Source: an uncultured Clostridia bacterium
GTDB lineage: Bacteria; Bacillota; Clostridia; Christensenellales; UBA1242
Assembly (NCBI GenBank): GCA_934747805.1
Contig: CAKVHC010000005.1
Span: forward strand, 668 to 64,667
Length of the DNA: 64,000 nt
Reading direction: 5' to 3'
A model generated the notes under the pieces. It did not search any database. It was not told the origin of the DNA and was given only the letters and a program-made list of their open reading frames with translations. The position numbers were made by a program, and so were the translations under genes. This document shows positions 11,275-64,000 of the stretch, piece by piece; position 1 is the stretch's first letter; every line of letters begins with the position of its first letter.

Positions 11275-11315
11275 ATCAAAAAAAACACTAAAATAACAAC
11301 AAAAAACACGCATTT
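11273..11315 (+). repeat. direct repeat copy A (5' arm of a terminator, truncated at the loop)
   Basis: AAATCAAAAAAAACACTAAAATAACAACAAAAAACACGCATTT. Matches 12059-12099 except for A-run lengths. Confidence 0.85.
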
Positions 11316-11485: not shown

Positions 11486-12040
11486 ATGAGACAAAAATTT
11501 ATTGATAAAATATACATGAGAGAGGTTCTTGAAAAAGAATGGTATCTTGAAAAAGATGAGAAATTTAATGGCTACATTGCCTTAAAGTATATAAAGAATA
11601 TTTTAAGGCCTTTAACAGCTTTTAGTAACGGTAAAAAATATGTAGGTCTAGACAAGGGATATTCAATACTTGAATATGTTCCACTAGATAGGAAGTATAA
11701 TTGCAGAATCTTTTTTGACAACCTAAACAGACCTTTATGTTTTTACTTTGATATTAACAATGGCTCAGGTATTGAAAATGATGTTCCTTGGTACGATGAT
11801 TTGTATCTTGACGTAACAATGGAATGTCCTACTATTACTGAAATTGGATATTATGTTCGCCTTGATGATGAAGCAGAATTTAAAATGGCCAAAAAAGAAG
11901 GCAAAATTGACGAAGACACATATAATGCTGGTTACAAAGTTGCTATGGATTTAATGCAAGAGCTTAGAGAACAAAAAAATGATATCGTAAATAGATGTCA
12001 ATTTGACCTGTATAGAATTAAAACTTTATTAAGATTATAA
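11486..12040 (+). CDS. DUF402-like (FomD/Ntdp-type nucleoside di/triphosphatase family) protein, tentative
   Basis: AAGAGG RBS. Pattern ...FYFDINNG...PWYDDLYLDVTM... is reminiscent of DUF402. Recognised by eye only. Confidence 0.45.
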   Translation: MRQKFIDKIYMREVLEKEWYLEKDEKFNGYIALKYIKNILRPLTAFSNGKKYVGLDKGYSILEYVPLDRKYNCRIFFDNLNRPLCFYFDINNGSGIENDVPWYDDLYLDVTMECPTITEIGYYVRLDDEAEFKMAKKEGKIDEDTYNAGYKVAMDLMQELREQKNDIVNRCQFDLYRIKTLLRL

Positions 12041-12058: not shown

Positions 12059-12099
12059 AAATCAAAAACACTAAAATAACAACAAAAAAACACGCATTT
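12059..12099 (+). repeat. direct repeat copy B (continues into a complete terminator hairpin)
   Basis: AAATCAAAAACACTAAAATAACAACAAAAAAACACGCATTT followed by TGCGTGTTTTTT. Confidence 0.85.
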
Positions 12100-12112
12100 T
12101 GCGTGTTTTTTC
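12084..12112. terminator. rho-independent terminator (A-run / CACGC-ATTTT-GCGTG / T-run)
   Basis: Seen directly at 12091-12105, with flanking A7 and T7 runs. Confidence 0.65.
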
Positions 12113-12229: not shown

Positions 12230-14281
12230 TTATTTAAAGAAGTCAAAATCGTCGTCATCATCATCTGTCGAGTTGCCCAGCACTATGCGGTTTCTTTCGA
12301 CAATATCGTAATAGACGTGTTCTTCGTCAAGTGCAACATTTGGCGTGTAAGGAATTTTTGGTGCGCGAATGTTGTAAATGTCTTTCGCATAGAAGTATGG
12401 GGTGAATGTCGCTTTGACAGGGTCTTTGAAACGATAGTATGAAATGATAAGTTTGTTTTTGGCTGGGTCGTTGGCTGTCGCATTGTTGACAGTTGGAAGC
12501 TCTTGTGCATCGATAAGTGGGATAGATACCGCTTTTTTGCTTTCGCTTGTGCTTTTTTTGTCGCTTCCGCCACCGCTTGATGTGGATTTGTCGGTCATTT
12601 CAATCGTGCGATTACCCAGCTTTTTGCTGAAAGTTTCGTTGGTTTCGTGGTCGTCCGAACCCATGTAAACGGTGATAGGTGTGTTGTTGTAAATGGTTTG
12701 GCTGTCTTCCTTACCATAACGGCTGTCAAGTTGTGAGTATGACTGGATTGCCATTACGTAGAATATGCCACGGCTTCGTGCAACGGAAATGGTTGGTCCA
12801 AAGTCTGGGAATTTAGGCAAGTTTGCGAACTCGTCTAGTAGGAAATAGACGTGACGTTTTAGGCTCGCCATAGTGCCTGGTTTTTGGAAACTGATGGCTT
12901 CTTCAACGAGTTGCTTGTAGATTTGGGTGAAACAGATAGTTGCAATAGGGTCACGAGTGTGAATGTAGTCAGGGATTTTGATAAAGAATGCACTTGGCTT
13001 ACGTGGAATCTCACGGAAATTGATTTCTGTCTTGCTGGTCAGTAGGCAAACGCCCATATCGCTAAACGGAGCCATTTTCTCGCTGACAATTGACATATAT
13101 GATTTCATTGTGCCTTCCGCAGCGGTGAGCACTGGGCTACACAATGCTGCAACTTTACTGAATTTGCTACGTCCGTCAATATACTTTTTCAAGCTGGCAC
13201 GTGGGTCACGTCCGCTCGTATCAATGTGGTTACATATTTTATATAGGTTGTATGGATTGAATTTGTCTTTGGTCATTCCAAGTCGTTCGTCATCGCTGTC
13301 TTCCAGCATGGCGAGTGCAATGCCTAGAATGTATGACCTAGCACCACGTTCCCAACCTGGTTGAGTCTTGTCTTCCACCGTTGCAATCGTGCTGACAAAG
13401 TCGCTCAAATCGTTCTGTGCTTCGTCAATGAGTTCCTTTTTCTTCACCTCCATATCGCTGAACAAAAGTTGCTGATTGATGTAAGCGTGTTTGTTAAATT
13501 CGTACCAACTGGTTTCGTCTTCGTTAAAGTCTTGCGTCTTCACCATTTTGTTGGTGTCTACCTTGTCGCCAGCTTGGTGAACGAATAGCATTTCTTCAAT
13601 GTGTTGCGCCATTTTATATTTGTTGTACGCATTCTCCATTGGGTTCCATTTCATACTGCTGAATGGCTCGGCAAGGTCGAGAATCTTGATGTCGTATCCA
13701 TGCTCTTTCAGGTTTTCATAGTTGTGGTCGAGAATGTCGCCCTTTGGGTCGGAGATGATGAAACTTGGTCGAGCCTTTGTGCGTGACATAATCTGCACGA
13801 ATGGTTCGAGATATTGCGTAGATTTACCACTACCGGTTGTACCAATGATAAGTGTGTGAATAGGGTCAACATAGTTAATGTGGATAGTTTTACCTTTCTT
13901 CTCTGCACGGATGAGAATGCCGTCCTTTGGCATATCTTTCAATGTTTCCATTGTGCAGTGGTTGTGCTTGGTGTCCAACTCTTTGTCGCTCATCCATTTC
14001 TTGTCGTAGTATTGGTCGGTCGTCTTGCCGGATGTGTCTTTACCTTTCCAGCTGCCACCGCCTTTGTCTTTCTTCTTGCTGTCCCATTTCATCAGCAATA
14101 CGACGAATAGGCACAACGCACCAACGAAGAATACCATCATCGTGGTGCTGCTGGCAAGATATGCGGGCGAGAATACGAACGACCCCGCATTGTCCATCAT
14201 GGAGCTGGCAGTGTATGCTATTGCGTATATGCCAATGAGATATAGCACGCCCCAAAATAATTTCTTAAATATCTTCTTCAT
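12230..14281 (-). CDS. virD4: T4SS coupling protein, VirD4/TraG/TraD family
   Basis: Two N-terminal TM helices. Walker A IIGTTGSGKSTQ, DPKGD motif (FIISDPKGDILD), Walker B YFLLDEFANLP. 683 aa with an acidic C-terminal tail (DDDDDDFDFF). Confidence 0.85.
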   Translation of the reverse strand: MKKIFKKLFWGVLYLIGIYAIAYTASSMMDNAGSFVFSPAYLASSTTMMVFFVGALCLFVVLLMKWDSKKKDKGGGSWKGKDTSGKTTDQYYDKKWMSDKELDTKHNHCTMETLKDMPKDGILIRAEKKGKTIHINYVDPIHTLIIGTTGSGKSTQYLEPFVQIMSRTKARPSFIISDPKGDILDHNYENLKEHGYDIKILDLAEPFSSMKWNPMENAYNKYKMAQHIEEMLFVHQAGDKVDTNKMVKTQDFNEDETSWYEFNKHAYINQQLLFSDMEVKKKELIDEAQNDLSDFVSTIATVEDKTQPGWERGARSYILGIALAMLEDSDDERLGMTKDKFNPYNLYKICNHIDTSGRDPRASLKKYIDGRSKFSKVAALCSPVLTAAEGTMKSYMSIVSEKMAPFSDMGVCLLTSKTEINFREIPRKPSAFFIKIPDYIHTRDPIATICFTQIYKQLVEEAISFQKPGTMASLKRHVYFLLDEFANLPKFPDFGPTISVARSRGIFYVMAIQSYSQLDSRYGKEDSQTIYNNTPITVYMGSDDHETNETFSKKLGNRTIEMTDKSTSSGGGSDKKSTSESKKAVSIPLIDAQELPTVNNATANDPAKNKLIISYYRFKDPVKATFTPYFYAKDIYNIRAPKIPYTPNVALDEEHVYYDIVERNRIVLGNSTDDDDDDFDFFK

Positions 14282-14492
14282 ACTAAACCTTTATATTATT
14301 TCAAATTTTACTTATTAGCACACGCATTGTCAAACAATATTTTCTTTAATTTAGGTATTTATTCCTATAATTATGTTCAAAATAGTGTTGCATAGCTTCG
14401 TTTTGCACGGCTCTTTGTGCCCGCAATTATGCTTGATTGCCGTGCTAGCCGCAAATTTTGTATATTTTTTTAAAAAATTGTGTAAAAATCGT

Positions 14493-14522
14493 TTGCAAAA
14501 TTAATTTTGCTTGTGTTACAAT
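14493..14522 (+). promoter_or_regulatory. candidate extended -10 promoter of pilin-like gene 1
   Basis: TTGCAA (14493-14498), 18-nt spacer, TGT-TACAAT (-10 at 14517-14522). Confidence 0.45.
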
Positions 14523-14561
14523 CAAGTCAAGAAACGAAAACGAAAGTATAAGGAGAAAATT

Positions 14562-14924
14562 ATGAATACACTTTTAGTTGGTATTGCTAATAAAATGTTA
14601 AGTGTTGGTACTATGCTTGCCACAGATGAGTCTGGCAAAAATGTTACAGAACAGACTTGGTTCACTACATTAATTGCTAACATTCAAAAATGGATTACAC
14701 CATTGCTAGTTTTGGCTTGTGCGGCAGGTGCTATTTGGGCAATTGTGTTGGGCGTAAAGATGGCTCAGGCAGAGGATAAAGGCAAACGTGACGAAGCTAA
14801 ACAAGCACTTATTAACGTAATTATTGCGTTGGTTGCAGTCATTGCTTTGATCTTGATCTTCACAGTAGTTGGCAATGCGTTGTTGAAGAATCCTATTGTG
14901 TCAACCGCTGCTTCATCAAATTAA
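14562..14924 (+). CDS. VirB2/TrbC-like pilin-like conjugal-transfer-type protein, paralog 1 (120 aa)
   Basis: AAGGAG RBS before ATG 14562. Two hydrophobic helices (PLLVLACAAGAIWAIVLGV and LINVIIALVAVIALILIFTVVG) are joined by the charged loop KMAQAEDKGKRDEAKQA, the classic pilin hairpin topology. Confidence 0.6.
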   Translation: MNTLLVGIANKMLSVGTMLATDESGKNVTEQTWFTTLIANIQKWITPLLVLACAAGAIWAIVLGVKMAQAEDKGKRDEAKQALINVIIALVAVIALILIFTVVGNALLKNPIVSTAASSN

Positions 14925-14936
14925 TAATAAAGAAAA

Positions 14937-14966
14937 CAAAAATGCACTTTTGAGTGCATTTTTTTA
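14937..14966 (+). terminator. rho-independent terminator after pilin-like gene 1
   Basis: AAAAATGCACT-TTTG-AGTGCATTTTTTT. Confidence 0.7.
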
Positions 14967-15057
14967 TGCTATTATGACAATAATTTTAAAATTGTCGAAT
15001 ATTTTGTTGCTTATTAATTTTTTATGTGATAAATTTTAACTAGACGTAGGAGAATAT

Positions 15058-15486
15058 ATGAATTTATTGACTATTATTGCAAACGGAATAATGTCTGGAA
15101 AAGTGAATTTGGGACCAGTGATGCCAGATATTAAAGAAGATGGTGGCAACGGTGGTACAACCGGCGGGACAACTGGCGGTACAGGAGGTGCAAAACCTGA
15201 CTCTAGTGTAATAACTGATCAAGTATGGTTTAGAAATTTGATTAGTGCGATACAAAAATGGATCACGCCATTGCTAGTTTTGGCTTGCGCAGCAGGTGCC
15301 ATTTGGGCAATTGTATTGGGCGTTAAAATGGCTCAAGCAGAAGACAAAGGTAAACGTGACGAAGCTAAACAAGCACTCGTAAATGTAATCATCGCATTGG
15401 TGGCTGTAATTGCTTTGATTTTAATTTTTACAGTAGTTGGCAATGCGTTGTTGAAGAATCCTATTGTGTCAACCGCTGCTGATTAA
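15058..15486 (+). CDS. VirB2/TrbC-like pilin-like protein, paralog 2 (142 aa) with a Gly/Thr-rich insert
   Basis: AGGAG RBS. The C-terminal ~85 aa are nearly identical to paralog 1. The N-terminal part carries GGNGGTTGGTTGGTGGAKPDSS. Confidence 0.6.
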   Translation: MNLLTIIANGIMSGKVNLGPVMPDIKEDGGNGGTTGGTTGGTGGAKPDSSVITDQVWFRNLISAIQKWITPLLVLACAAGAIWAIVLGVKMAQAEDKGKRDEAKQALVNVIIALVAVIALILIFTVVGNALLKNPIVSTAAD

Positions 15487-15491
15487 TAAAT

Positions 15492-15520
15492 AAAAAAATG
15501 CACTTTCGAGTGCATTTTTT
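15492..15520 (+). terminator. rho-independent terminator after pilin-like gene 2
   Basis: AAAAAATGCACT-TTCG-AGTGCATTTTTT, a paralogous copy of the 14937-14966 hairpin. Confidence 0.7.
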
Positions 15521-15876
15521 GTTTGCCTGTTTGGAAGAGTATTTTGCTGGCAGAGTGAGAAATGATTATAAATATAGATTTTAGTTCTAGGCAATATTGC
15601 CGCTTTGCGAGGTGGATTATTTGCAATACGGTTCAAAAGGTATTTTTTAACCCCCAAGATTGCCTAAATTTGTCGTAAAAGTGCGATAAGATAAAACAAA
15701 TTGCTTGCTAAATAATTTTATATTAGATATACTCTAATTAGTATATACACGCCCTAATGACGCTGCTGCAAGTGTGATGTGTGAGCCACAATTTGCCACA
15801 ATCAGTCGCAACTGAAAATATTTCTTTGTCGGCTGGGTATAATTAAAATGATGACGAAAGAACAAAGGAGAATTAT

Positions 15877-18729
15877 ATGGGATTAATGTTGATCGGATTG
15901 TCGAGTTTGCTGGAAATAGATATTTTTCCGTTTCTATTCGAAGCACTGACAAAACCATTATTCCAGATCATTTCGGTTTTTGAAGGGATATTCAAGGGTC
16001 TGGCAGGCATTGTTGACCCTGTATCTTCGGACATCGGATTGGTGGAGAATGCTGCAGGCAGTAAAAATATCATAGTTCAATTGTTTCAAAGCAAAACTAT
16101 GCAGAGCATTTTGACCTCGCTCATGCTATTCGGCATTGTCGTGCTCGTGCTGTCGGTAATTTTGGCAATTATACGTAACGTATACAAAGATGATTCCAAA
16201 GTCACCATTTCTTCAATCATCGGTCAAGCCATAAAGGCTGTGATAGGTTTCATTCTCGTGCCTTCACTTTGCCTTGTTGGTGTAATGTTGAGCAACGTGA
16301 TCCTTGTGGCAGTCGACGGAGCAACCAACGCTCGTGGCACACCGTCATTCGCCGCAGGCATATATTCTGCGTGTCAAAAGGAAGATCCTGTTCAAAACGT
16401 ATTTAATGATGTAATTTATAGTGCTCCTGTAGATTATTTTGGCAACATTAATCAATCTAGCAGTGGCGACTCATCTAGTGGAGAGAGTACTGGCTCTGAA
16501 GAGTCAGGCAGTACGACGACCGACGATACTTCTGTATACGATTTTCACATCGCAGGAATAATTTATGCACAATATCTGTGGCAAGCACTCACTGAAGATT
16601 GTATATATGGCGGACAATTAGTTTGGGTATACAGAACAGACTCACTGGGTCAATATTTAACTGATGTCAAATATGTCGATGTGTTGGGTTTGAAAGTAGA
16701 AGATGATGATCTTTTAGACTTCACCGATATGAACAATTGGGACAATGGTAATGGCATTGCCGGAGTGATAGATACGAAAGAAGATGTCGCACTATTCTAC
16801 GAAATGCTTAAAAACCAATACACAGCGAATTTCCCAAATGCAGAAAAATTGGTTATTAAGGCCATTGCAGGCAACGCTATCGGTAAGAAGTATCCGAAGT
16901 GTAAGATAGCTCTTTCTAGCAAAACAGGTACCACCACAAAAAACTATTTTTGTGCAGGTAGCGATAAATATGATTTAAAAGAACAATCATTTGTGTATTA
17001 CTATTATGGCAAAGCCTTATTCGATTATAATGGTGATTATGGTGAAGTTCAACAAGATGAAAAATACCTTAAAGAAGCGTATGTTGCATTTGAAAAAAGC
17101 AAGACTTTTGGTGCAACCAGTTGGTACTTTCAGAAAAATTCTTCGCAATGGACAAATGACAACTTAAACAAAACATTGTGTTTGGGTGACAATATTAACT
17201 ATTTCTTTGCATTCGTGGCTAGCATAATGGTGGCAAAATCATTGTTCGTGCTGTGCTTTGGTATGGCGAAACGTATTGTTCAGCTCGCATTGTATTATGT
17301 TCTCTCGCCAATAGCATTGGCACTTTATCCATTCGATAATGGTAAAGCGTTCGGCAGTTGGAAGAGTGACTTCGTTGGCTACACTGTAGGTGCATTTGGT
17401 GCTGTGGCTGGTGTAAACTTAACCATTCAACTCATGCCAGTAGTCAACAGAATTCAAATTTTCTCTTCAAGAATATATAACGACGTAACACAATTAATTC
17501 TCTACATCATTCTTGCACAAGGCATGGAAAGTCTGGTCAAGACCCTAAGCGGCTGGATTGGCGGCAAAGACCTATTCGCCGAAGGCAAGGCAACTTCACA
17601 AACAGCAACTGCTCCTATCAAGAAGGTCGCTGGCTCAGTAATGAAAGTGGCTGGCACGGTAATTGGTACTGGTGTCGGTGTTGCAATAGGCGCATCTGCT
17701 GCTAGAAAGAATAAAGGAACGCTCAAAACATTAACAGATAAAATGGGCGGCACTGCAGAGGAAAAATTAGAAGCAGAAGAAACGGCAAAGGCAGCTGGAT
17801 ATTCAAGTGCATCTGCGTATAAAGCCGACTTAGAGAAGAATTCGTCAAATGGTAAAGCGTGGTATTTAGGTGGTGGACTTGGTACAGCATTGAAGAATAC
17901 AGTAAAAACTAAAGCTAATCAGATTGGCGATTTTGCTACTAACAAATTTGCTAGCACTCAATTTGGTATGGCGTTCGATAAAGAAACAGGCCTATCAAAA
18001 CTGATTTCGAAGAGTGCAGCTCAGGATGCGTCTGCAAAGGTTAAGACAGACTTAGAAGCCAAACTTGATACAGACTTTAAGAATGGCATTGTAACTGCAA
18101 AAATGTCTGCAGACTTAACCAAAGCATTGGAGGATATCAAAGCATCGCTGGATAAAAATTCTAGTACGAGTGCTGCTAGTATGAATGCGACTGCAGTTGA
18201 GGCCTTTGCTGGACAGTTGGCAGGCATAAAAGGGCTTACTACTGATAACGCAGAAGAATTTATCAGAACAGGCAATATGTCACTAATTAGTAGTTTGAGC
18301 GGTAAAGCACAGCAAATGGCAATACAAACACGCTCCAACTATCTAGCGTCTGACGAGTATCAAGATTATGCTCGGAATTTACGTGCGGCAAGGTCATATG
18401 GACTTACTGAAGCTGATCTCAATGATGCAGGCTTTAAAGCAGAAAATGTCGTTAATACTATTATGAGCTCAATTACAAATAATTTGGATTATGCTAAATT
18501 TAGAACCGCACAGCAAACGGGCAACGAACAAGAGATGTATCGCATGATGGCTGCTAGTGTTGCTGCAACAACCAATATTTCACATAGTATGATTGATCAA
18601 TTGACGAAGGGTGTTGCTTCAATTACAACTTCTGCAGTCGATGCAATTAAAAAGACACAAACTGAAACACAGACTAAAGTGCAACAGCAAACTGAAAATC
18701 GTTGGAAAGGTTCAGCACCTAAAAAATAA
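15877..18729 (+). CDS. VirB6/TrbL/TcpH-like polytopic T4SS membrane protein with a large extracytoplasmic loop and a long Ala/Lys/Thr-rich C-terminal tail
   Basis: AAAGGAG RBS. About 8 hydrophobic helices in two blocks (aa ~75-145 and ~455-645) are separated by a ~300-aa soluble loop. The C-terminal ~300 aa are low-complexity and coiled-coil-like. Assignment rests on position between pilin and VirB4 genes, with no motif-level proof. Confidence 0.55.
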   Translation: MGLMLIGLSSLLEIDIFPFLFEALTKPLFQIISVFEGIFKGLAGIVDPVSSDIGLVENAAGSKNIIVQLFQSKTMQSILTSLMLFGIVVLVLSVILAIIRNVYKDDSKVTISSIIGQAIKAVIGFILVPSLCLVGVMLSNVILVAVDGATNARGTPSFAAGIYSACQKEDPVQNVFNDVIYSAPVDYFGNINQSSSGDSSSGESTGSEESGSTTTDDTSVYDFHIAGIIYAQYLWQALTEDCIYGGQLVWVYRTDSLGQYLTDVKYVDVLGLKVEDDDLLDFTDMNNWDNGNGIAGVIDTKEDVALFYEMLKNQYTANFPNAEKLVIKAIAGNAIGKKYPKCKIALSSKTGTTTKNYFCAGSDKYDLKEQSFVYYYYGKALFDYNGDYGEVQQDEKYLKEAYVAFEKSKTFGATSWYFQKNSSQWTNDNLNKTLCLGDNINYFFAFVASIMVAKSLFVLCFGMAKRIVQLALYYVLSPIALALYPFDNGKAFGSWKSDFVGYTVGAFGAVAGVNLTIQLMPVVNRIQIFSSRIYNDVTQLILYIILAQGMESLVKTLSGWIGGKDLFAEGKATSQTATAPIKKVAGSVMKVAGTVIGTGVGVAIGASAARKNKGTLKTLTDKMGGTAEEKLEAEETAKAAGYSSASAYKADLEKNSSNGKAWYLGGGLGTALKNTVKTKANQIGDFATNKFASTQFGMAFDKETGLSKLISKSAAQDASAKVKTDLEAKLDTDFKNGIVTAKMSADLTKALEDIKASLDKNSSTSAASMNATAVEAFAGQLAGIKGLTTDNAEEFIRTGNMSLISSLSGKAQQMAIQTRSNYLASDEYQDYARNLRAARSYGLTEADLNDAGFKAENVVNTIMSSITNNLDYAKFRTAQQTGNEQEMYRMMAASVAATTNISHSMIDQLTKGVASITTSAVDAIKKTQTETQTKVQQQTENRWKGSAPKK

Positions 18730-18744
18730 CTTTAAAGGAAAAAT

Positions 18745-21387
18745 ATGCAAAGATTTATTCCAGGTAAGACGAAGGTCAAAACTGAATTTTGGAAGGGCGT
18801 AACGATCAGTGATTTAATCACTGGTCTTATTGCTCTTGCGGGGGCAGGACTGATTCTTGCTGCCAACATATTTGACATGCGAACAAAAATCGTCGTTCTG
18901 CTATCTTGGCTTGGACTTATGGCGAGTATGTTTATCCCTGTCGATGAAGGATTGCGACTATATGGTTCGCTTGGACTTTTGTTCAGGTTTATGGCGTTCA
19001 AAAAGCGATATTCCACCGACCTTGAAAAAAAACATTATGCTCCGATGAGCGAACTGACTCCATTCTTGAACATCGAGTTGGGCAAGTATATCAACTACGG
19101 TGAATATCGTGGAATGGTGCTAGAAATTATGCCTCTCGAATTCGGACTGTTGAACGAAGACAAGCAAAATATGATGATCAACACATTCGCCAGCGGCTTG
19201 CGAAGACTGAGTGAATATCAGTCGGCGACCATTGTCAAACTCAAAAAGCCGATGGTGTTTGATAGTTACATGGCTCGTGATGACGAAAAGTTTGCCATTC
19301 TTAACCAGCAGTACGCTGAGGGTGAGTTCACCAAAGAAGAACTCGATGCACGTGGATTAATATTCGAAGAACGTGTAATGACTCTCGATCATGCCAATCG
19401 TCAAGACCCAATATTGCAAGACCATTTTTATATGGTGGTGTATGGCTCAGATAAAGATGCTCTCGAAAGCACAGTAGAAGGTATCAAAAACACTATTGGT
19501 TCAGGTCAAACACCTGTAAAAGCACATGTTTTGAAAGAAGTCGACCTTGTGTCATTCTTAAAATCTAACTACACAGAAAACTTTAACGAAAAAGAAATTG
19601 CTTCCGTTCCAGTTTCGCAATATATGAAATATGTCTTGCCAAAGACAGTGGAGTTTAAGGTGTCACGAACGGTTGTTGATGGCAATGGCTATCGCAACTT
19701 CGTTGTGTCACAATATCCGCTTGCCGTAGACAATGGTTGGGCGTATTCGTTATTCGCACTCGACAAGGCACGTGTGGTGATGAATTTCCACCCGATGCAG
19801 CGTGACAAAGCGGAAAAAATGATTGACCGTGCCATAATGGAAACGGAAACCAAACTGGAAAAAGCAGGCAAAAGCAGTAAGCAGATTGAATTGGAAACCC
19901 AATTGGAAACAATGCGTAGCTTGCTTGAAATGCTCAAAAACAACAACGAACAACTATTCAACGTCAACACTCACATTCAATGTAAAGAAGTGGCACGTAA
20001 GGAGATTAAGTCTATCCTACGTCAAAACGGCTTTAGGGTGGCAGAAATGTTCGGCCGTCAGGTCGATGCCTACATTTCAAACAGCATCAGCCGACTCGAC
20101 CTTGTCAAATCGTTTGAGCGTGGCATGCCAACAACCACTTTGGCGGCAGCATTCCCATTCGTGTCAAGTTCGATGCAGGATCCAACAGGTTTCTACATCG
20201 GCGACAACGAATATCCAGTATTCATTGACTTCTTCTCACGAAAAGAACGTATCAATAGTAACATGATGATTGTCGGTAAATCTGGTTCTGGTAAATCTTA
20301 CGCAACCAAGACGCTGCTTGCCAACCTTGCGGCCGACAAAACTAAAATATTCCTTCTCGACCCAGAAAAAGAATATGTGCCACTTGCACGCAATTTGCAT
20401 GGCAAAATTATTGACGTGGGCTCTTCCAGTCAAGGCATGATTAATCCATTCCAAATCATGTTCAGTTTGAAAGAAGATGATGACGAAGAAGAGGGCACGG
20501 ACGACTTCTCGACCCACTTGCAATTCTTGGAACAATTCTTCCGTGTGGTATTGGAAGGCATTTCCACCGATGCATTTGAGTTGTTGAATACGCTGGTAGT
20601 TGAACTCTACAAGAGCAAAGGCATTGACCAGCGAACAGACGTAACAAAACTGAAACAAACCGACTTCCCAATATTCGATGACCTATACGACCTTATCTGC
20701 AAGAAGCTCGCTAAAGAAAAGGACGAATATTTCAAACGAAACTACCAAATTTTGCAGACGTACGTACAAAAGTTTAGCACAGACGGACGTAACGCTAACC
20801 TTTGGAACGGTTACACGTCGCTCACCACGACAGAAAACTTTATTCTATTTAACTTCCGTACAATGTTCGCCAACCGAAACGAATCGCTTGCAAACGCACA
20901 AATGTTGTTGATATTTAAATATCTAAACAACGAAATCATTAAAAACCGTGACTACAACCTAAGCCACAACTTCAAGCGACAAGTTGTCGTTGCCGTCGAT
21001 GAAGCACACATGTTTATCGACCCTAAATTCCCAGTTGCACTTTCATTTATGGCGGAGATGGCAAAACGTATCCGTAAATATGAAGGTATGCAAATCATTA
21101 TTACACAAAACATCAAAGACTTCTTGGGCAGTGCGGACATCGTTCGTCAATCATCGGCGATTATCAACGCCAGCCAGTACAGTTTGATTTTCCAACTTGC
21201 GCCTAACGATATGAACGACTTGTTGCAACTTTATGCGTCCAGTGGTGGACTTACTAAAGAAGAACAAGACGGCATTGTCACGGCCGACAAAGGTGTCTGC
21301 TTCCTAATCACAGGCCCATTGTCACGTACATTTGTGCACATCGTTGCTCTGCCAACAGTTAGATATATGATTGGTGAAGCCAAATAA
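18745..21387 (+). CDS. virB4: VirB4/TraE/TrsE-family T4SS ATPase with a fused N-terminal VirB3/PrgI-like two-TM module
   Basis: Walker A MIVGKSGSGKSYATK, Walker B VVVAVDEAHMFID. The first ~90 aa (KTEFWKGVTISDLITGLIALAGAGLILAANIF...VLLSWLGLMASMFIPV) look like a VirB3/PrgI-like membrane hairpin. Confidence 0.85.
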   Translation: MQRFIPGKTKVKTEFWKGVTISDLITGLIALAGAGLILAANIFDMRTKIVVLLSWLGLMASMFIPVDEGLRLYGSLGLLFRFMAFKKRYSTDLEKKHYAPMSELTPFLNIELGKYINYGEYRGMVLEIMPLEFGLLNEDKQNMMINTFASGLRRLSEYQSATIVKLKKPMVFDSYMARDDEKFAILNQQYAEGEFTKEELDARGLIFEERVMTLDHANRQDPILQDHFYMVVYGSDKDALESTVEGIKNTIGSGQTPVKAHVLKEVDLVSFLKSNYTENFNEKEIASVPVSQYMKYVLPKTVEFKVSRTVVDGNGYRNFVVSQYPLAVDNGWAYSLFALDKARVVMNFHPMQRDKAEKMIDRAIMETETKLEKAGKSSKQIELETQLETMRSLLEMLKNNNEQLFNVNTHIQCKEVARKEIKSILRQNGFRVAEMFGRQVDAYISNSISRLDLVKSFERGMPTTTLAAAFPFVSSSMQDPTGFYIGDNEYPVFIDFFSRKERINSNMMIVGKSGSGKSYATKTLLANLAADKTKIFLLDPEKEYVPLARNLHGKIIDVGSSSQGMINPFQIMFSLKEDDDEEEGTDDFSTHLQFLEQFFRVVLEGISTDAFELLNTLVVELYKSKGIDQRTDVTKLKQTDFPIFDDLYDLICKKLAKEKDEYFKRNYQILQTYVQKFSTDGRNANLWNGYTSLTTTENFILFNFRTMFANRNESLANAQMLLIFKYLNNEIIKNRDYNLSHNFKRQVVVAVDEAHMFIDPKFPVALSFMAEMAKRIRKYEGMQIIITQNIKDFLGSADIVRQSSAIINASQYSLIFQLAPNDMNDLLQLYASSGGLTKEEQDGIVTADKGVCFLITGPLSRTFVHIVALPTVRYMIGEAK

Positions 21388-21412
21388 AAAGTAGCATTTG
21401 CTACTTTTTTTT
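21386..21412 (+). terminator. rho-independent terminator after virB4
   Basis: AAAAAGTAGC-ATTT-GCTACTTTTTTTT. Confidence 0.65.
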
Positions 21413-21512
21413 ATTCCATAACCGCAAGTGTATGCATACACCAATTTATAGGCATCGAAGCTTTTGTCGAATAAAAGCGAAATTTTTACGCACATTATTT
21501 GTAGGAGTTTTT

Positions 21513-22040
21513 ATGAATAGCGGAATGAAAAGGCGTGTGGACGAATTGGGCAGAATTGTTCTGCCACGAGAGATTAGAAAAAGTTATCGTATTGATACAG
21601 GTGCAAAGATGGAAATATACGTTAACGACGACGGCTGCATCGTATTAAAGAAAGCAACTGAATTGCCTGACCGCAAAGAATACGAACGTGTGGTGACAGC
21701 ATTGGCAAGTGCGATTGAAAACGACATACTTATCACCGACCGTGAGCAAGTGTTGGCATCGAACAAAAAACGTTTTGTTGACAAACACTTATCGGACGAA
21801 TCATACGAAATTGTGCGTAAGCAAGATAGTATATTAAAAAACCGCACTCAAGGTGCGATTATGATTAATGTTATTGAAAATGAAAAGTCCAATTATTCGA
21901 GCGAACTTTTTGTGCCTATCGTCCGTGACGGCGATAGCATTGGCTCGATAATCGTCCTTGCAGACGAGAACAAAACTTTGTCTACAGAGAACATAAAACT
22001 TTGCAAGGCGTTTGCATTAATGCTTTCGCTCGTGGATTAA
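21513..22040 (+). CDS. spoVT: stage V sporulation protein T (AbrB-type SpoVT domain + GAF-like C-terminal domain)
   Basis: AGGAG RBS before ATG 21513. MKRRVDELGRIVLPREIRKSYRIDTGAKMEIYVNDDGCIVLKK closely mirrors the B. subtilis SpoVT N-terminus. 175 aa. Confidence 0.75.
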   Translation: MNSGMKRRVDELGRIVLPREIRKSYRIDTGAKMEIYVNDDGCIVLKKATELPDRKEYERVVTALASAIENDILITDREQVLASNKKRFVDKHLSDESYEIVRKQDSILKNRTQGAIMINVIENEKSNYSSELFVPIVRDGDSIGSIIVLADENKTLSTENIKLCKAFALMLSLVD

Positions 22041-25146: not shown

Positions 25147-25989
25147 TTAACTCCTTACATAGTCCAGTGCGATTTGTGGCACTTGTTTGTTCTGTTCGAA
25201 AATTTCTTTTAGATATTCTTCACCAATTGGATGTGGCAATTCTTCTCGTCCCACTTCAAATGTGTAGGCAGGTATTTGCAACTCACGTATGCACCAGTCC
25301 TTATATCCGCCAGTGCTGTTTTGAGTGAGGATGAGTTCATATCCCGTCGAGTTTGCGAATTGTTCGCCTAATGCACGGTCACGTGCCAAGTCTGTTTCGC
25401 TTTCGCCGTTGAAACAATAATAAATAACTTCGCCTTTTGAGTGGTAACTTATAGACAATTTAATTCTATTCTTTTTTGTGAAATTTGTCAAAACTCTCAC
25501 TTCACGTTCGCTTTCGGCATAAAAGCCTACAAAGTCTTCACTTGCCGGGCAAAACACGTTTTGTGTTCCCTGTCCCCAATCGGCATTAAAATTGGTGTTT
25601 AGGTCGACGGCGTTGGCGTTGGCTTTCCATTGTGAAAAATCTGTGCCACCGTTGATCGTGCTTAGATAATCTTGAGTGGTGGCACAAGGCAGACTATCCA
25701 GTCCGTCCAACACTAATGCCAGCCCATCTGGATTTGTGCAAAAAATGAAATATATTCCACCAGTAGTTGCCGGGGTGTTGGCATACTGTTTGGCTAATTC
25801 AATCACCAACAAACTTGAAATATATTCTCGTGAGTGAATTCCGCCCTGTATTATTATCTGTGGTCCACTAAACGAACCAACGTGTGTGCCATATATAGGA
25901 CGATTTAATGTCGATTGTCCAATGGTGAATATTTCCAGCCCATAATTTTGCAATTCAAAAATGCGATTATTAAATTCATTAAAAGTCAT
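25147..25989 (-). CDS. M14-family zinc carboxypeptidase (gamma-D-glutamyl-meso-diaminopimelate peptidase-like)
   Basis: GGIHSREY (HxxE zinc motif), NPDG, and a conserved H in LSISYHSKGEVIYY. Confidence 0.7.
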   Translation of the reverse strand: MTFNEFNNRIFELQNYGLEIFTIGQSTLNRPIYGTHVGSFSGPQIIIQGGIHSREYISSLLVIELAKQYANTPATTGGIYFIFCTNPDGLALVLDGLDSLPCATTQDYLSTINGGTDFSQWKANANAVDLNTNFNADWGQGTQNVFCPASEDFVGFYAESEREVRVLTNFTKKNRIKLSISYHSKGEVIYYCFNGESETDLARDRALGEQFANSTGYELILTQNSTGGYKDWCIRELQIPAYTFEVGREELPHPIGEEYLKEIFEQNKQVPQIALDYVRS

Positions 25990-36134: not shown

Positions 36135-36707
36135 TTATTTGTTAAAGTTGAAATAGTCGTTTGGATTAACTTTGTTGTCGTTTAAGGTGACTTCAAAGTG
36201 CAAGTGTGCACCTTGAGTGGCTTCGTTCGCTGCAGTGTCACTAACCGCACCGAGCACAGTTCCTTTCTTGACGATGTCGCCTTTTGCCACTTTCAATTCT
36301 TTTGCCAAAGATTTATATGTGGTCTTTAATCCGTCCTTGTGTTGTATTACTACATAATAACCATTGAGATAACTATTGCCAGCCTCAATAACCGTGCCTT
36401 CATAAACTGCGACCACTGGGCTGCCTGCCTTTGCTGTAAAGTCCACCGCTTTGTGAGCTTCCCATTGCTTGAGAGTAGGGTTGTATTGCAGTTCGGTGTC
36501 ACTGTAGTCTTTTGTAATTGATGCATTGGCTACTGGGATATCAAACTTAATCGGCGTTGTGCTGACGCTAATTGCGTTCGAGTTTGCCCCGATTGTTGCG
36601 AATGTAATACCTAGTGCTAGAATCAGTGCGATTGAGCAGGTGATGATTGCTAGTTTGTATCTCGACCAAATGCTTGTCTTTCTGTGCAATTTTATGTTTT
36701 GTTCCAT
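36135..36707 (-). CDS. membrane-anchored M23/LytM-family metallopeptidase (SpoIIQ-like architecture)
   Basis: One N-terminal TM helix. Intact HKAVD (HxxxD) and HLHFE (HxH) motifs. 190 aa. Confidence 0.8.
   Translation of the reverse strand: MEQNIKLHRKTSIWSRYKLAIITCSIALILALGITFATIGANSNAISVSTTPIKFDIPVANASITKDYSDTELQYNPTLKQWEAHKAVDFTAKAGSPVVAVYEGTVIEAGNSYLNGYYVVIQHKDGLKTTYKSLAKELKVAKGDIVKKGTVLGAVSDTAANEATQGAHLHFEVTLNDNKVNPNDYFNFNK

Positions 36708-62278: not shown

Positions 62279-64000
<1,722 letters not shown>

Follow-up and report, generated by a model that had tools for sequence, protein, structure and literature searches.

The annotated type IV secretion systems (T4SSs) that most closely resemble the one reported here are those of the mollicutes, whose integrative and conjugative elements (ICEs) and plasmids carry a module encoding a small two-helix protein, a polytopic transmembrane (TM) protein and a VirB4 ATPase, in that order. 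The mycoplasma counterparts of the pilin-like small proteins have been termed VirB3-like in a review, and neither VirB1 nor VirB8 is found in mycoplasma ICEs (review). The conjugative T4SSs of Gram-positive bacteria, such as those of ICEBs1, pCW3 (Tcp), pCF10 and the Clostridioides difficile conjugative transposons (CTn), are summarized in a minimal model of six components (VirB1, VirB3, VirB4, VirB6, VirB8 and VirD4), and the T4SSs of Gram-positive bacteria are not known to include pilin-like genes, other than in the Patescibacteria (review). The latter possess a chromosomal T4SS with VirB2-like pilins and without a relaxase, which in Southlakia is essential for epibiotic growth (PMC12102498; PMC12857230). 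Here, we describe a T4SS locus on a stretch of 64,000 nucleotides (nt) (GenBank assembly GCA_934747805.1, contig CAKVHC010000005.1, positions 668 to 64,667; hereafter, the window) from an uncultured member of the Clostridia family UBA1242, and compare it with these systems.

The locus, located at positions 12230-21387 of the window, consists of five intact open reading frames (ORFs) that encode a VirD4-type coupling ATPase, two VirB2-like pilins, a VirB6-like polytopic protein of 950 amino acids (aa) and VirB4 (Table 1). A preliminary description of this DNA, made from the sequence alone, had proposed such a five-gene T4SS core. The ORFs were recovered at the positions it had proposed, all the motifs it had quoted for the two ATPases are present, and the identity of the core is backed by profile hidden Markov models (HMMs) of Pfam and NCBIfam, or, in the case of the 950-aa protein, of NCBIfam only. 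The locus is the mating-pore and coupling-protein module of a monoderm, mollicute-ICE-like (MPF_FATA-type) system that is kept next to spoVT, and it is very probably a domesticated, functional T4SS and not an ICE. To our knowledge of the literature, in which we found no earlier description of this UBA1242 locus, it has not been reported before; no secretion system is mentioned in the genomic study of the family (PMC12306168), nor in a 2026 study of UBA1242 in chickens.

Several lines of evidence support this conclusion. Firstly, the locus is widespread and collinear among related genomes. VirB4 shares 98% identity with its counterpart in the human-gut metagenome-assembled genome (MAG) HGM11372, and 84-86% with that of MAG KG228-83, which belongs to genus HGM11372 of family UBA1242, order Christensenellales (PMC12306168). 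When one genome per species was scanned, VirB4 relatives were found in 67 species-representative genomes of the same uncultured family, labelled as Onthoplasma, Christensenella-like, Lachnospiraceae or unclassified Clostridia MAGs. The gene order is kept among these relatives at VirB4 identities of 48-67% outside the genus of the window: in all 55 informative loci, VirB4 is immediately preceded by the VirB6-like gene, a pilin gene is present in 43 of 46, and VirD4 is located upstream of VirB4 in 38 of 43, being divergently oriented in 37 of those. At the other end, spoVT is present at most 1.5 kb downstream of VirB4 in 42 of 57 loci, and the dusB, murJ, tadA, M14 peptidase and CAAX protease genes often follow on this side. 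Relatives may have extra DNA between VirB4 and dusB, which encodes housekeeping enzymes and surface proteins; no mobile-element or effector genes were found in these downstream insertions, and no relative of the locus was found on viral contigs. The spoVT-like gene stays beside VirB4 even when its orientation is flipped, and dusB and murJ are often displaced by insertions; the adjacency of spoVT and VirB4 could reflect ancestral synteny or a regulatory link.

Secondly, the locus has diverged together with its chromosomal surroundings. The distance matrices of VirB4 and VirD4 track those of dusB, murJ, the M14 peptidase, tadA and spoVT (Mantel r 0.72-0.98, p ≤ 0.004), and VirB4 does not diverge faster than dusB, murJ, M14 or tadA. 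Across the 67 species representatives, this distribution is unlike the patchy, horizontal pattern of an ICE.

Thirdly, the locus is under strong purifying selection, and VirB4 and VirD4 are the most constrained genes nearby. In the comparison with a congeneric genome (L001), VirB4 has the lowest rate of nonsynonymous substitution (dN) among 16 genes (dN 0.010; ratio to the synonymous rate, dN/dS, 0.014), and VirD4 the second-lowest (dN 0.015, dN/dS 0.033). The Walker motifs of VirD4 are invariant among 39 relatives, and the motif positions of VirB4 are 96-100% conserved in 63 sequences, except for one Walker B residue. In the same comparison with L001, the synonymous divergence (dS) of VirD4 and VirB4 is 0.45 and 0.70, at 85-95% nt identity; that of the flanking housekeeping genes is 1.1-2.8, at about 80% nt identity, and the gene between the two ATPases is the most diverged. 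The proposal in the preliminary description that this is a fixed locus rather than a selfish ICE is thus borne out by its collinearity in 67 species, its co-divergence with the neighbouring genes and the lowest dN/dS of its ATPases; no bounding repeats and no patchy distribution were found.

Finally, no gene typical of a mobile element was detected in the surroundings. Scanning of the window ORFs of at least 100 aa (the ORF at 63432-63953 on the minus strand was left out) gave mostly housekeeping or envelope genes, as well as several ORFs without a family match. No relaxase, integrase or transposase families were found among them, as the preliminary description had claimed, and neither were the DDE recombinase CDS22 or the CDS14 and CDS19 backbone genes of mycoplasma ICEs. 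The 64-kb window contains no tRNA genes, and no direct repeats of the att type bound the region 12230-21387. The GC content of the locus (0.37-0.43) is the same as that of the remaining window, in line with the composition reported previously, and an Rfam scan gave no match inside the locus.

The closest relatives of the locus provide clues to its origin. In an exhaustive search of 1.8 billion representative proteins, VirB4 relatives formed a continuum between 50% and 27% identity. When 72,556 plasmids were compared, the VirB4 proteins closest to that of the window came from Spiroplasma plasmids and a Mesomycoplasma record (28-33% identity; others about 22%), and in the Spiroplasma plasmids and the M. 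hyopneumoniae record (L069, L070) the Mbov_0395, Mbov_0396 and Mbov_0397 genes have the same order as their counterparts here. A VirB4 with 42% identity to that of the window was found on metagenomic contigs of about 39 kb (L079), which encode, in this order, a MobL relaxase, VirD4, a 1634-aa protein, a pilin, a 490-aa TM protein and VirB4, followed by a primase-like protein, a DNA methylase and a helicase; judging by this gene content, L079 is a mobile element, and L078 represents another ICE-like context. The VirD4 of L079 is 31.6% identical to that of the window over its full length, and its VirD4, pilin and TM protein all match the UBA1242 loci. No match to its MobL, however, was found in the window or in the 67 loci with flanks of 10 kb on either side. 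The MobL elements (L079, L078) contain homologues of VirD4, the pilin, the VirB6-like protein and VirB4, but have their own MobL gene directly upstream of VirD4, together with genes for a primase, a methylase, a single-stranded DNA-binding protein and a toxin-antitoxin pair and with resistance genes, all of which are missing from the UBA1242 locus. Moreover, the VirB6-like protein of L079 is short and all its genes are located on one strand, unlike those of UBA1242. On the simplest reading, the UBA1242 locus would be the mating-pore and coupling-protein module of a MobL-type element that has lost its relaxase and cargo, and this derivation would also have involved inversion of VirD4 and lengthening of the VirB6-like protein from about 490 aa to 730-970 aa.

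Two further loci resemble stripped-down cores. In the M. hyopneumoniae record NZ_LR214993.1 (L070, 10016-19663), an orphan block of dprA, Mbov_0395, Mbov_0396, Mbov_0397 and Mbov_0399 lies between eno and serS on one side and rpsT and aspS on the other; the record is filed as a plasmid but looks chromosomal, and the block is a similar mollicute core beside a DNA-processing gene. In a Christensenellales MAG (L077, 3595-12718; VirB4 50% identical), the VirB6-like/VirB4 pair is located directly downstream of comEC-holA, and neither VirD4 nor a Pfam-recognised pilin gene was found within 10 kb.

The VirD4 protein contains the motifs GTTGSGKST, DPKGD and LLDEFANLP, with Walker A at residues 147-155 and Walker B at residues 479-488, has TM segments at its N-terminus and ends in an acidic tail (DDDDDDFDFFK). 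It matches the Pfam families T4SS-DNA_transf (6.8e-37, 127.8 bits), TraG-D_C (6.3e-35) and TrwB_AAD_bind, as well as NCBIfam conju_CD1115 (272.7 bits, cutoff 250), and its nearest annotated plasmid family is the clostridial CD1115 family. VirB4 contains the motifs GKSGSGKSY and VAVDEAHMF (Walker A, residues 511-518; Walker B, residues 748-756) and matches P-loop_TraG, DUF87 and AAA_10 of Pfam above their gathering scores; its C-terminal domain matches the solved VirB4 domain of PDB entry 4AG5 (9e-48). Against the NCBIfam model of Mbov_0397 (VirB4_plasma) it scores 589.3 bits (cutoff 590), with residues 10-866 aligned to positions 9-883 of the 894 of the model, and against the CD1110 family 176 bits, which does not reach the cutoff of 325. 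Two hydrophobic helices at its N-terminus (residues 18-45 and 47-67) are consistent with a fused VirB3-like hairpin.

Both small proteins match the Pfam family T4SS_pilin (PF18895) above its gathering score of 26.6 (pilin 1, 40.4 bits; pilin 2, 33.5 bits), and fall just below the cutoff of 40 of the NCBIfam Mbov_0395 pilin-like family (38.3 and 37.1 bits, respectively). In pilin 1, a signal-like N-terminus precedes a hydrophobic hairpin of two helices. Its start had previously been placed at a TTG codon (14511), but sequence reading and alignment indicate that the ATG at 14562, which lies behind an AAGGAG ribosome-binding site, is the most likely start. Pilin 2 has the same C-terminal hairpin as pilin 1 and a different, Gly/Thr-rich N-terminal part. 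Its AlphaFold2 model consists of two long helices forming a helical hairpin, at low confidence, and Foldseek and a profile search of the PDB gave only non-specific helical or TM matches. As these structure-based searches of pilin 2 were uninformative, the pilin call relies on Pfam and NCBIfam. The two pilin genes share a direct repeat of 255 nt with 85% identity, and the values calculated between them (dS 0.95, dN 0.065) point to purifying selection on both copies. A recent tandem duplication was considered as the source of the two copies and was rejected because of the dS of 0.95. The pilins are about 80% identical to their L001 counterparts, and pilin 2 is missing from the conspecific strain L076, which carries a single pilin gene.

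The VirB6-like protein is the most variable component of the system. It has no Pfam match; it exceeds the cutoff of NCBIfam MMCAP2_0566_fam (97 bits, cutoff 90), with the match split in two stretches since a hydrophilic insert interrupts this domain, and it scores below the cutoff of the Mbov_0396 equivalog (58 bits, cutoff 70). The insert is not present in the VirB6-like orthologues of Onthoplasma. With 65% aa identity to its L001 orthologue, the VirB6-like gene is the least conserved of the neighbourhood, the other proteins being 82-98% identical to those of L001, except for the pilins. Region-wise comparison of 20 VirB6-like homologues showed that the insert and the C-terminal tail are exchanged independently of the TM scaffold: in one pair, the tails are 100% identical and the scaffolds 45-86% identical, and in another pair the scaffolds are 96-99% identical and the tails 41% identical. 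The clearest example is the conspecific strain L076. Over 13 kb it is 97-100% identical to the window at the nt level, whereas the tail-coding segment (window about 17600-18700, about 370 aa) has been replaced, with sharp borders, by an unrelated one (47-57% identity). Every tail opens with a conserved stretch, in which a Gly/Ala-rich hydrophobic segment is followed by Arg/Lys. The insert and the variable tails gave no match in Pfam. The AlphaFold2 model of the 950-aa protein, based on the 20-sequence alignment, was poor (pLDDT 56, pTM 0.40), and no PDB structure was found with it by Foldseek at E ≤ 0.001. The same pattern of conserved ATPases and diverse VirB2 and VirB6 proteins has been described in Anaplasma (PMC3556328).

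The VirB6-like gene also differs in number and context among other loci. In L071/L072 (1-22646; VirB4 45% identical, contigs up to 1.2 Mb), which have VirD4 on the minus strand and two pilins, three VirB6-like paralogues of 2389, 2267 and 1006 aa are arranged around VirB4, the MMCAP2_0566/Mbov_0396 domain being split in each; this expansion recalls the VirB6 paralogues of the Rickettsiales. Homologues of the 950-aa protein are also encoded on short contigs without an adjoining VirB4 or VirD4 (L074 408-3233; L075 7001-9874), in L075 after argS, a DHDPS-family gene and a tRNA U5-methyltransferase gene, and together with an XRE-type regulator; they could represent either rearranged loci or orphan paralogues. 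The Onthoplasma-type loci (L007 5561-7072, L015 6023-7516, L066 6035-7357 and 38 others) have one more gene, located between those for the pilin and the VirB6-like protein. Its product is bitopic and about 500 aa long (range 366-609 aa), and has an acidic N-terminus, a single TM helix and an ectodomain of roughly 330 aa. It has no Pfam or NCBIfam family, has a lipoprotein relative in L002, and is a candidate VirB8-like or adhesin component. This protein is absent from the genus of the window: no remnant was detected in the spacer upstream of the VirB6-like gene and no copy elsewhere in the window. The possibility that the insert of the VirB6-like protein is homologous to this bitopic protein was examined and rejected, as the HMM search was negative; the complementary presence and absence of the two held only partly.

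The organization of the locus suggests four transcription units, as predicted from promoter-like sites and terminator-like hairpins (Table 1): VirD4 is transcribed alone and divergently, each pilin gene singly, and the VirB6-like gene together with VirB4. DNA reading and a consensus scan suggest that each pilin gene has its own promoter-like site, and that their terminator hairpins are nearly identical. VirB4 starts 16 nt beyond the end of the VirB6-like gene, and these two genes probably form one operon.

Table 1. Positions of the genes, protein regions and other elements of the T4SS locus, and of further features of the window.
Feature	Position	Strand	Evidence or remark
35-nt direct repeat, left copy	11281-11315		perfect repeat
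DUF402 gene	11486-12040		bracketed by the 35-nt repeat
35-nt direct repeat, right copy	12064-12099		perfect repeat
Terminator-like bidirectional hairpin 3' of VirD4	12084-12112	.	consensus scan
VirD4-type coupling ATPase (type IV coupling protein, T4CP), 683 aa	12230-14281	-	Pfam, NCBIfam
VirD4 promoter-like site TTGACA-17-TAAAAT, divergent intergenic region	14305-14333	-	11/12 consensus matches, predicted
Pilin 1 promoter-like site	14493-14522		consensus scan
Pilin 1 (VirB2-like/Mbov_0395-like), 120 aa	14562-14924	+	Pfam, NCBIfam near cutoff
Pilin 1 terminator hairpin	14938-14963		consensus scan
Pilin 2, 142 aa	15058-15486	+	Pfam T4SS_pilin
Pilin 2 own terminator	15493-15520		
Non-coding spacer 5' of VirB6-like gene	15521-15876	.	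no + strand ORF of at least 60 aa
VirB6-like polytopic protein, extended, 950 aa	15877-18729	+	NCBIfam MMCAP2_0566_fam
VirB6-like, N-terminal TM bundle (residues 1-150)	15877-16326		
VirB6-like, variable hydrophilic insert, about 290 aa (residues 151-440)	16327-17196		
VirB6-like, conserved TM core (residues 441-600)	17197-17676		
VirB6-like, polymorphic C-terminal tail, about 350 aa (residues 601-950)	17677-18729		
VirB4 ATPase with fused VirB3-like N-terminal hairpin, 880 aa	18745-21387	+	NCBIfam, Pfam, PDB 4AG5; fusion: consistent with helices
VirB3-like hairpin span (VirB4 residues 18-67)	18796-18945		
Terminator-like hairpin closing the VirB6-like/VirB4 unit	21386-21409	.	repeat and consensus scans
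spoVT-like gene	21432-22040		
M14 carboxypeptidase	25147-25989		
M23 metallopeptidase	36135-36707		
ORF of 6533 aa	40110-59711		lipoprotein signal at start
23S rRNA gene, 5' 1.7 kb	62282-64000		runs off window end

The genes neighbouring the locus in the window include Tex, SufBD, rimO-like, spoVT, dusB, murJ-like, tadA, M14 peptidase, CAAX protease, pth, mfd and tilS genes. The pth-mfd-spoVT neighbourhood is the origin-proximal one known from Bacillus. Two statements of the preliminary description about the surroundings need correction. It had claimed that the window contains no peptidoglycan hydrolase, but an M23 metallopeptidase and an M14 carboxypeptidase are encoded in it, outside the locus at a distance of 4-15 kb. 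It had also named rimO as the left flank, and although a rimO-like gene is indeed located there, a DUF402 gene separates it from VirD4. Two perfectly matching copies of a 35-nt direct repeat bracket the DUF402 gene; the congeneric L001 and the conspecific L076 both lack the gene together with one of these copies, and it is thus a strain-specific insertion beside the T4SS locus. The ORF of 6533 aa has a lipoprotein signal at its start (…FLTAC) and a high content of Gly, Asn, Thr and Ser, and its sole family match, to Peptidase_M26_N, is weak; from these sequence features, it is taken to be a giant surface lipoprotein. The window ends within a 23S rRNA gene without an upstream 16S rRNA gene in the window, and the rRNA genes therefore appear to be unlinked.

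The resemblance to mycoplasma ICEs noted in the preliminary description is supported by the matches to the Mbov_0395, MMCAP2_0566/Mbov_0396 and Mbov_0397 families and by the same gene order in Spiroplasma and M. hyopneumoniae; besides this order, the near full-length alignment of VirB4 to the Mbov_0397 model the score of the TM protein above the MMCAP2_0566 cutoff and the lack of VirB1 and VirB8 are shared with the mollicute module. There are also clear differences, however. The mollicute VirB4 proteins are only 28-33% identical, three of the four NCBIfam scores are just or clearly below their cutoffs, and the DDE recombinase, the CDS14 lipoprotein, CDS19 and other ICE backbone genes are lacking here. 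Furthermore, the UBA1242 locus has become fixed, with vertical inheritance, in a Clostridia lineage that appears to be walled, its VirB6-like protein is longer (950 aa) and includes variable modules, and its VirD4 is divergently transcribed.

The preliminary description had also pointed to T4SSs of epibiotic bacteria, and this precedent holds for the Patescibacteria. Like the UBA1242 locus, the T4SS of Patescibacteria such as Southlakia epibionticum is monoderm, MPF_FATA-derived and chromosomal, has no relaxase nearby and is widely conserved within its lineage; it has PF18895 pilins beside virB4, in a genome of about 1 Mb or less that lacks biosynthetic functions (PMC12102498; PMC12857230). 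This likeness means that the locus may work like that system, not that it belongs to the same clade. The phylum is different (Bacillota here), VirB3 is fused to VirB4 here and no such fusion was present among 2,474 patescibacterial VirB4 proteins, and the T4CP, mostly unlinked and dispensable in Patescibacteria, is adjacent and extremely conserved here. In addition, no TrsD-like, VirB1-like or VirB8-like partner was seen here. With the rvh system of the Rickettsiales, the locus has in common that it is a domesticated T4SS of reduced-genome bacteria that are, or are predicted to be, obligate symbionts; in rvh, the ATPases are conserved, whereas VirB2 and an "extended" VirB6 have been duplicated and vary strongly from strain to strain (PMC3556328). 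The likeness is no more than an analogy: rvh, which includes VirB7-B11, is of the diderm P type (VirB/D), and only the ATPases share a sequence relationship. The conjugative T4SSs of Gram-positive bacteria, in turn, share the VirD4, VirB4, VirB3-like and VirB6-like functions with the UBA1242 locus, which differs from their six-component model in having no VirB1-like or VirB8/TcpC-like gene, and from these systems in having pilin-like genes.

The possible function of the locus can be considered in the light of what is known about its hosts. The genomes of UBA1242 are mostly smaller than 1 Mb, lack the capacity to make amino acids, nucleotides and lipids, parts of glycolysis, the ATP synthase and standard importers, and the organisms are predicted to be obligate symbionts or parasites (PMC12306168). 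Sporulation genes have been reported for the family. We propose that the VirB3-VirB4 fusion ATPase and the VirB6-like protein would form a membrane translocon and the VirB2-like pilins an external fibre or conduit, and that VirD4 would recruit cytoplasmic macromolecular substrates to this channel. The machine would act by contact on the partner or host cell that the metabolically deficient UBA1242 are thought to need, and the insert and tail cassettes of the VirB6-like protein, together with the variable N-termini of the pilins, might either set partner specificity or themselves be delivered. Our leading guess for the substrate is protein, in an effector or host-manipulation role like that of rvh, and analogous to the essential T4SS of the Patescibacteria. 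A role in the interaction with a partner or host is ranked first because the family-wide fixation and the strain-level diversification of the VirB6-like protein and the pilins resemble rvh and the T4SS of the Patescibacteria; partner-directed export as the mechanism is plausible by this analogy, but we stop short of calling it probable.

Some observations weigh against this proposal. The tightly linked and highly conserved VirD4 is a T4CP of a conjugative family and fits DNA transfer equally well. The search for a relaxase covered the window and the 67 related loci, and a relaxase may be encoded elsewhere in the genome; moreover, mollicute ICEs with this type of T4SS conjugate without a recognised relaxase. 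No effector candidate was identified in the locus. Neither a VirB1-like hydrolase nor a VirB8/TcpC-like protein is encoded between 12230 and 21387, even though the organism, judging by the murJ-like and M23 genes in the window, appears to have a peptidoglycan wall. The conserved stretch at the start of the VirB6-like tails is probably a further TM helix, and by the positive-inside rule the tail would then be cytoplasmic, which weakens a simple role of the tail in surface recognition. VirD4 is not adjacent in 5 of the 43 loci, and the low dS of VirD4 and VirB4 could be due to codon-level constraint or to recent recombination between lineages. Lastly, the partner-dependent lifestyle of UBA1242 is itself a prediction from genomes.

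Three other explanations for the locus were weighed against partner-directed export. A serious rival is the exchange of chromosomal DNA between UBA1242 cells, like the ICE-driven chromosomal transfer of mycoplasmas, with a relaxase that is unrecognised, unlinked or not needed at all; recombination would benefit a small, ratchet-prone genome, and the VirB6-like modules would be determinants of mating or exclusion specificity. The closest characterised homologues, CDS5, CDS15, CDS16 and CDS17 of the M. agalactiae ICEA, are needed for conjugation although no relaxase has been identified there, VirD4, which is ultra-conserved, falls in a family of conjugative T4CPs, and MobL-type conjugative elements are the mobile relatives closest to the locus. 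The locus also bears marks of recombination in its cassette swaps, the indel flanked by the 35-nt repeat, the variable pilin copy number and the low dS of its ATPases; this shows gene flow at the locus, however, and not that the machine mediates it. On the other side, no relaxase, oriT (origin of transfer) or MobL was found in the window or within 10 kb of the 67 loci, and we regard DNA exchange as less likely than partner-directed export. Family-wide fixation and co-divergence are typical of T4SSs that benefit their bearer, such as rvh, Dot/Icm and the T4SS of the Patescibacteria, whereas machines for the donation of DNA are usually patchy in distribution, which likewise counts against it.

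Alternatively, the machine might be an import conduit, resembling ComB, Ced or the "feeding tube" idea for Patescibacteria, which would take in DNA, nucleotides or further molecules, be it from an attached host cell or from the surroundings, and so compensate for the missing biosynthesis and transporters. The missing nucleotide, amino-acid and lipid synthesis and importers of UBA1242 (PMC12306168), the uptake role proposed for the T4SS and pilus of Patescibacteria (PMC12857230) and the position of related orphan cores beside the competence genes comEC-holA (L077) and dprA (L070) are in line with this idea. Export is nevertheless favoured over import because the T4SS-type importers ComB and Ced function without VirD4 (PMC12857230) and the T4CP of Southlakia is unlinked and dispensable (PMC12102498), whereas in UBA1242 VirD4 is linked in 38 of 43 loci, and only VirB4 has a lower dN among the 16 genes compared. 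In addition, the matches to CedB and CedD are weak, limited to the P-loop region and far below their cutoffs. We therefore consider an import function improbable. Least credible is the remnant of a decaying ICE, or the visible part of a larger one whose relaxase and integrase would lie beyond the window. The genes do derive from conjugation and have relaxase-bearing mobile relatives (L079, L078), but housekeeping genes are located directly on both flanks, the right flank is conserved across genera, the ORFs are intact with conserved catalytic motifs and are under the strongest purifying selection of the neighbourhood, the locus co-diverges with its neighbours and has the composition of the rest of the window, and att repeats and tRNA genes are absent; there is hardly any room for this explanation.

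The locus is of a known kind, namely a conjugation-derived T4SS domesticated by a bacterium with a reduced genome that is probably partner-dependent. What is new is that the host belongs to the Firmicutes and that the module is of the mollicute-ICE type, as are the fused VirB3-VirB4, the linked T4CP and the extended VirB6-like protein whose cassettes are swapped between strains. Since both the MobL-bearing ancestor type and the domesticated descendants are available for comparison, the steps of domestication (loss of the relaxase, inversion of VirD4 and extension of VirB6) can be traced. UBA1242 is widespread in the guts of humans and farm animals but has hardly been studied, and its genomes are as small as those of obligate symbionts; its T4SS is a concrete candidate for the means by which these cells acquire what they cannot make, or for DNA exchange. 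The "conjugation machine turned organelle" of the Patescibacteria and the Rickettsiales would then have arisen again inside the Firmicutes. A bolder possibility, which we put forward as speculation with little confidence, is that the UBA1242 are the Firmicute counterparts of the Patescibacteria, i.e. obligate epibionts or parasites of other gut microbes that have independently co-opted a mollicute-ICE-type machine as an essential host-interaction organelle; the variable pilins, and the insert and tail that the VirB6-like protein exchanges as cassettes, would then determine host range or specificity, or would be translocated themselves. If this were true, T4SS domestication would have emerged convergently, in different phyla, as a hallmark of ultra-small bacteria that depend on partners.

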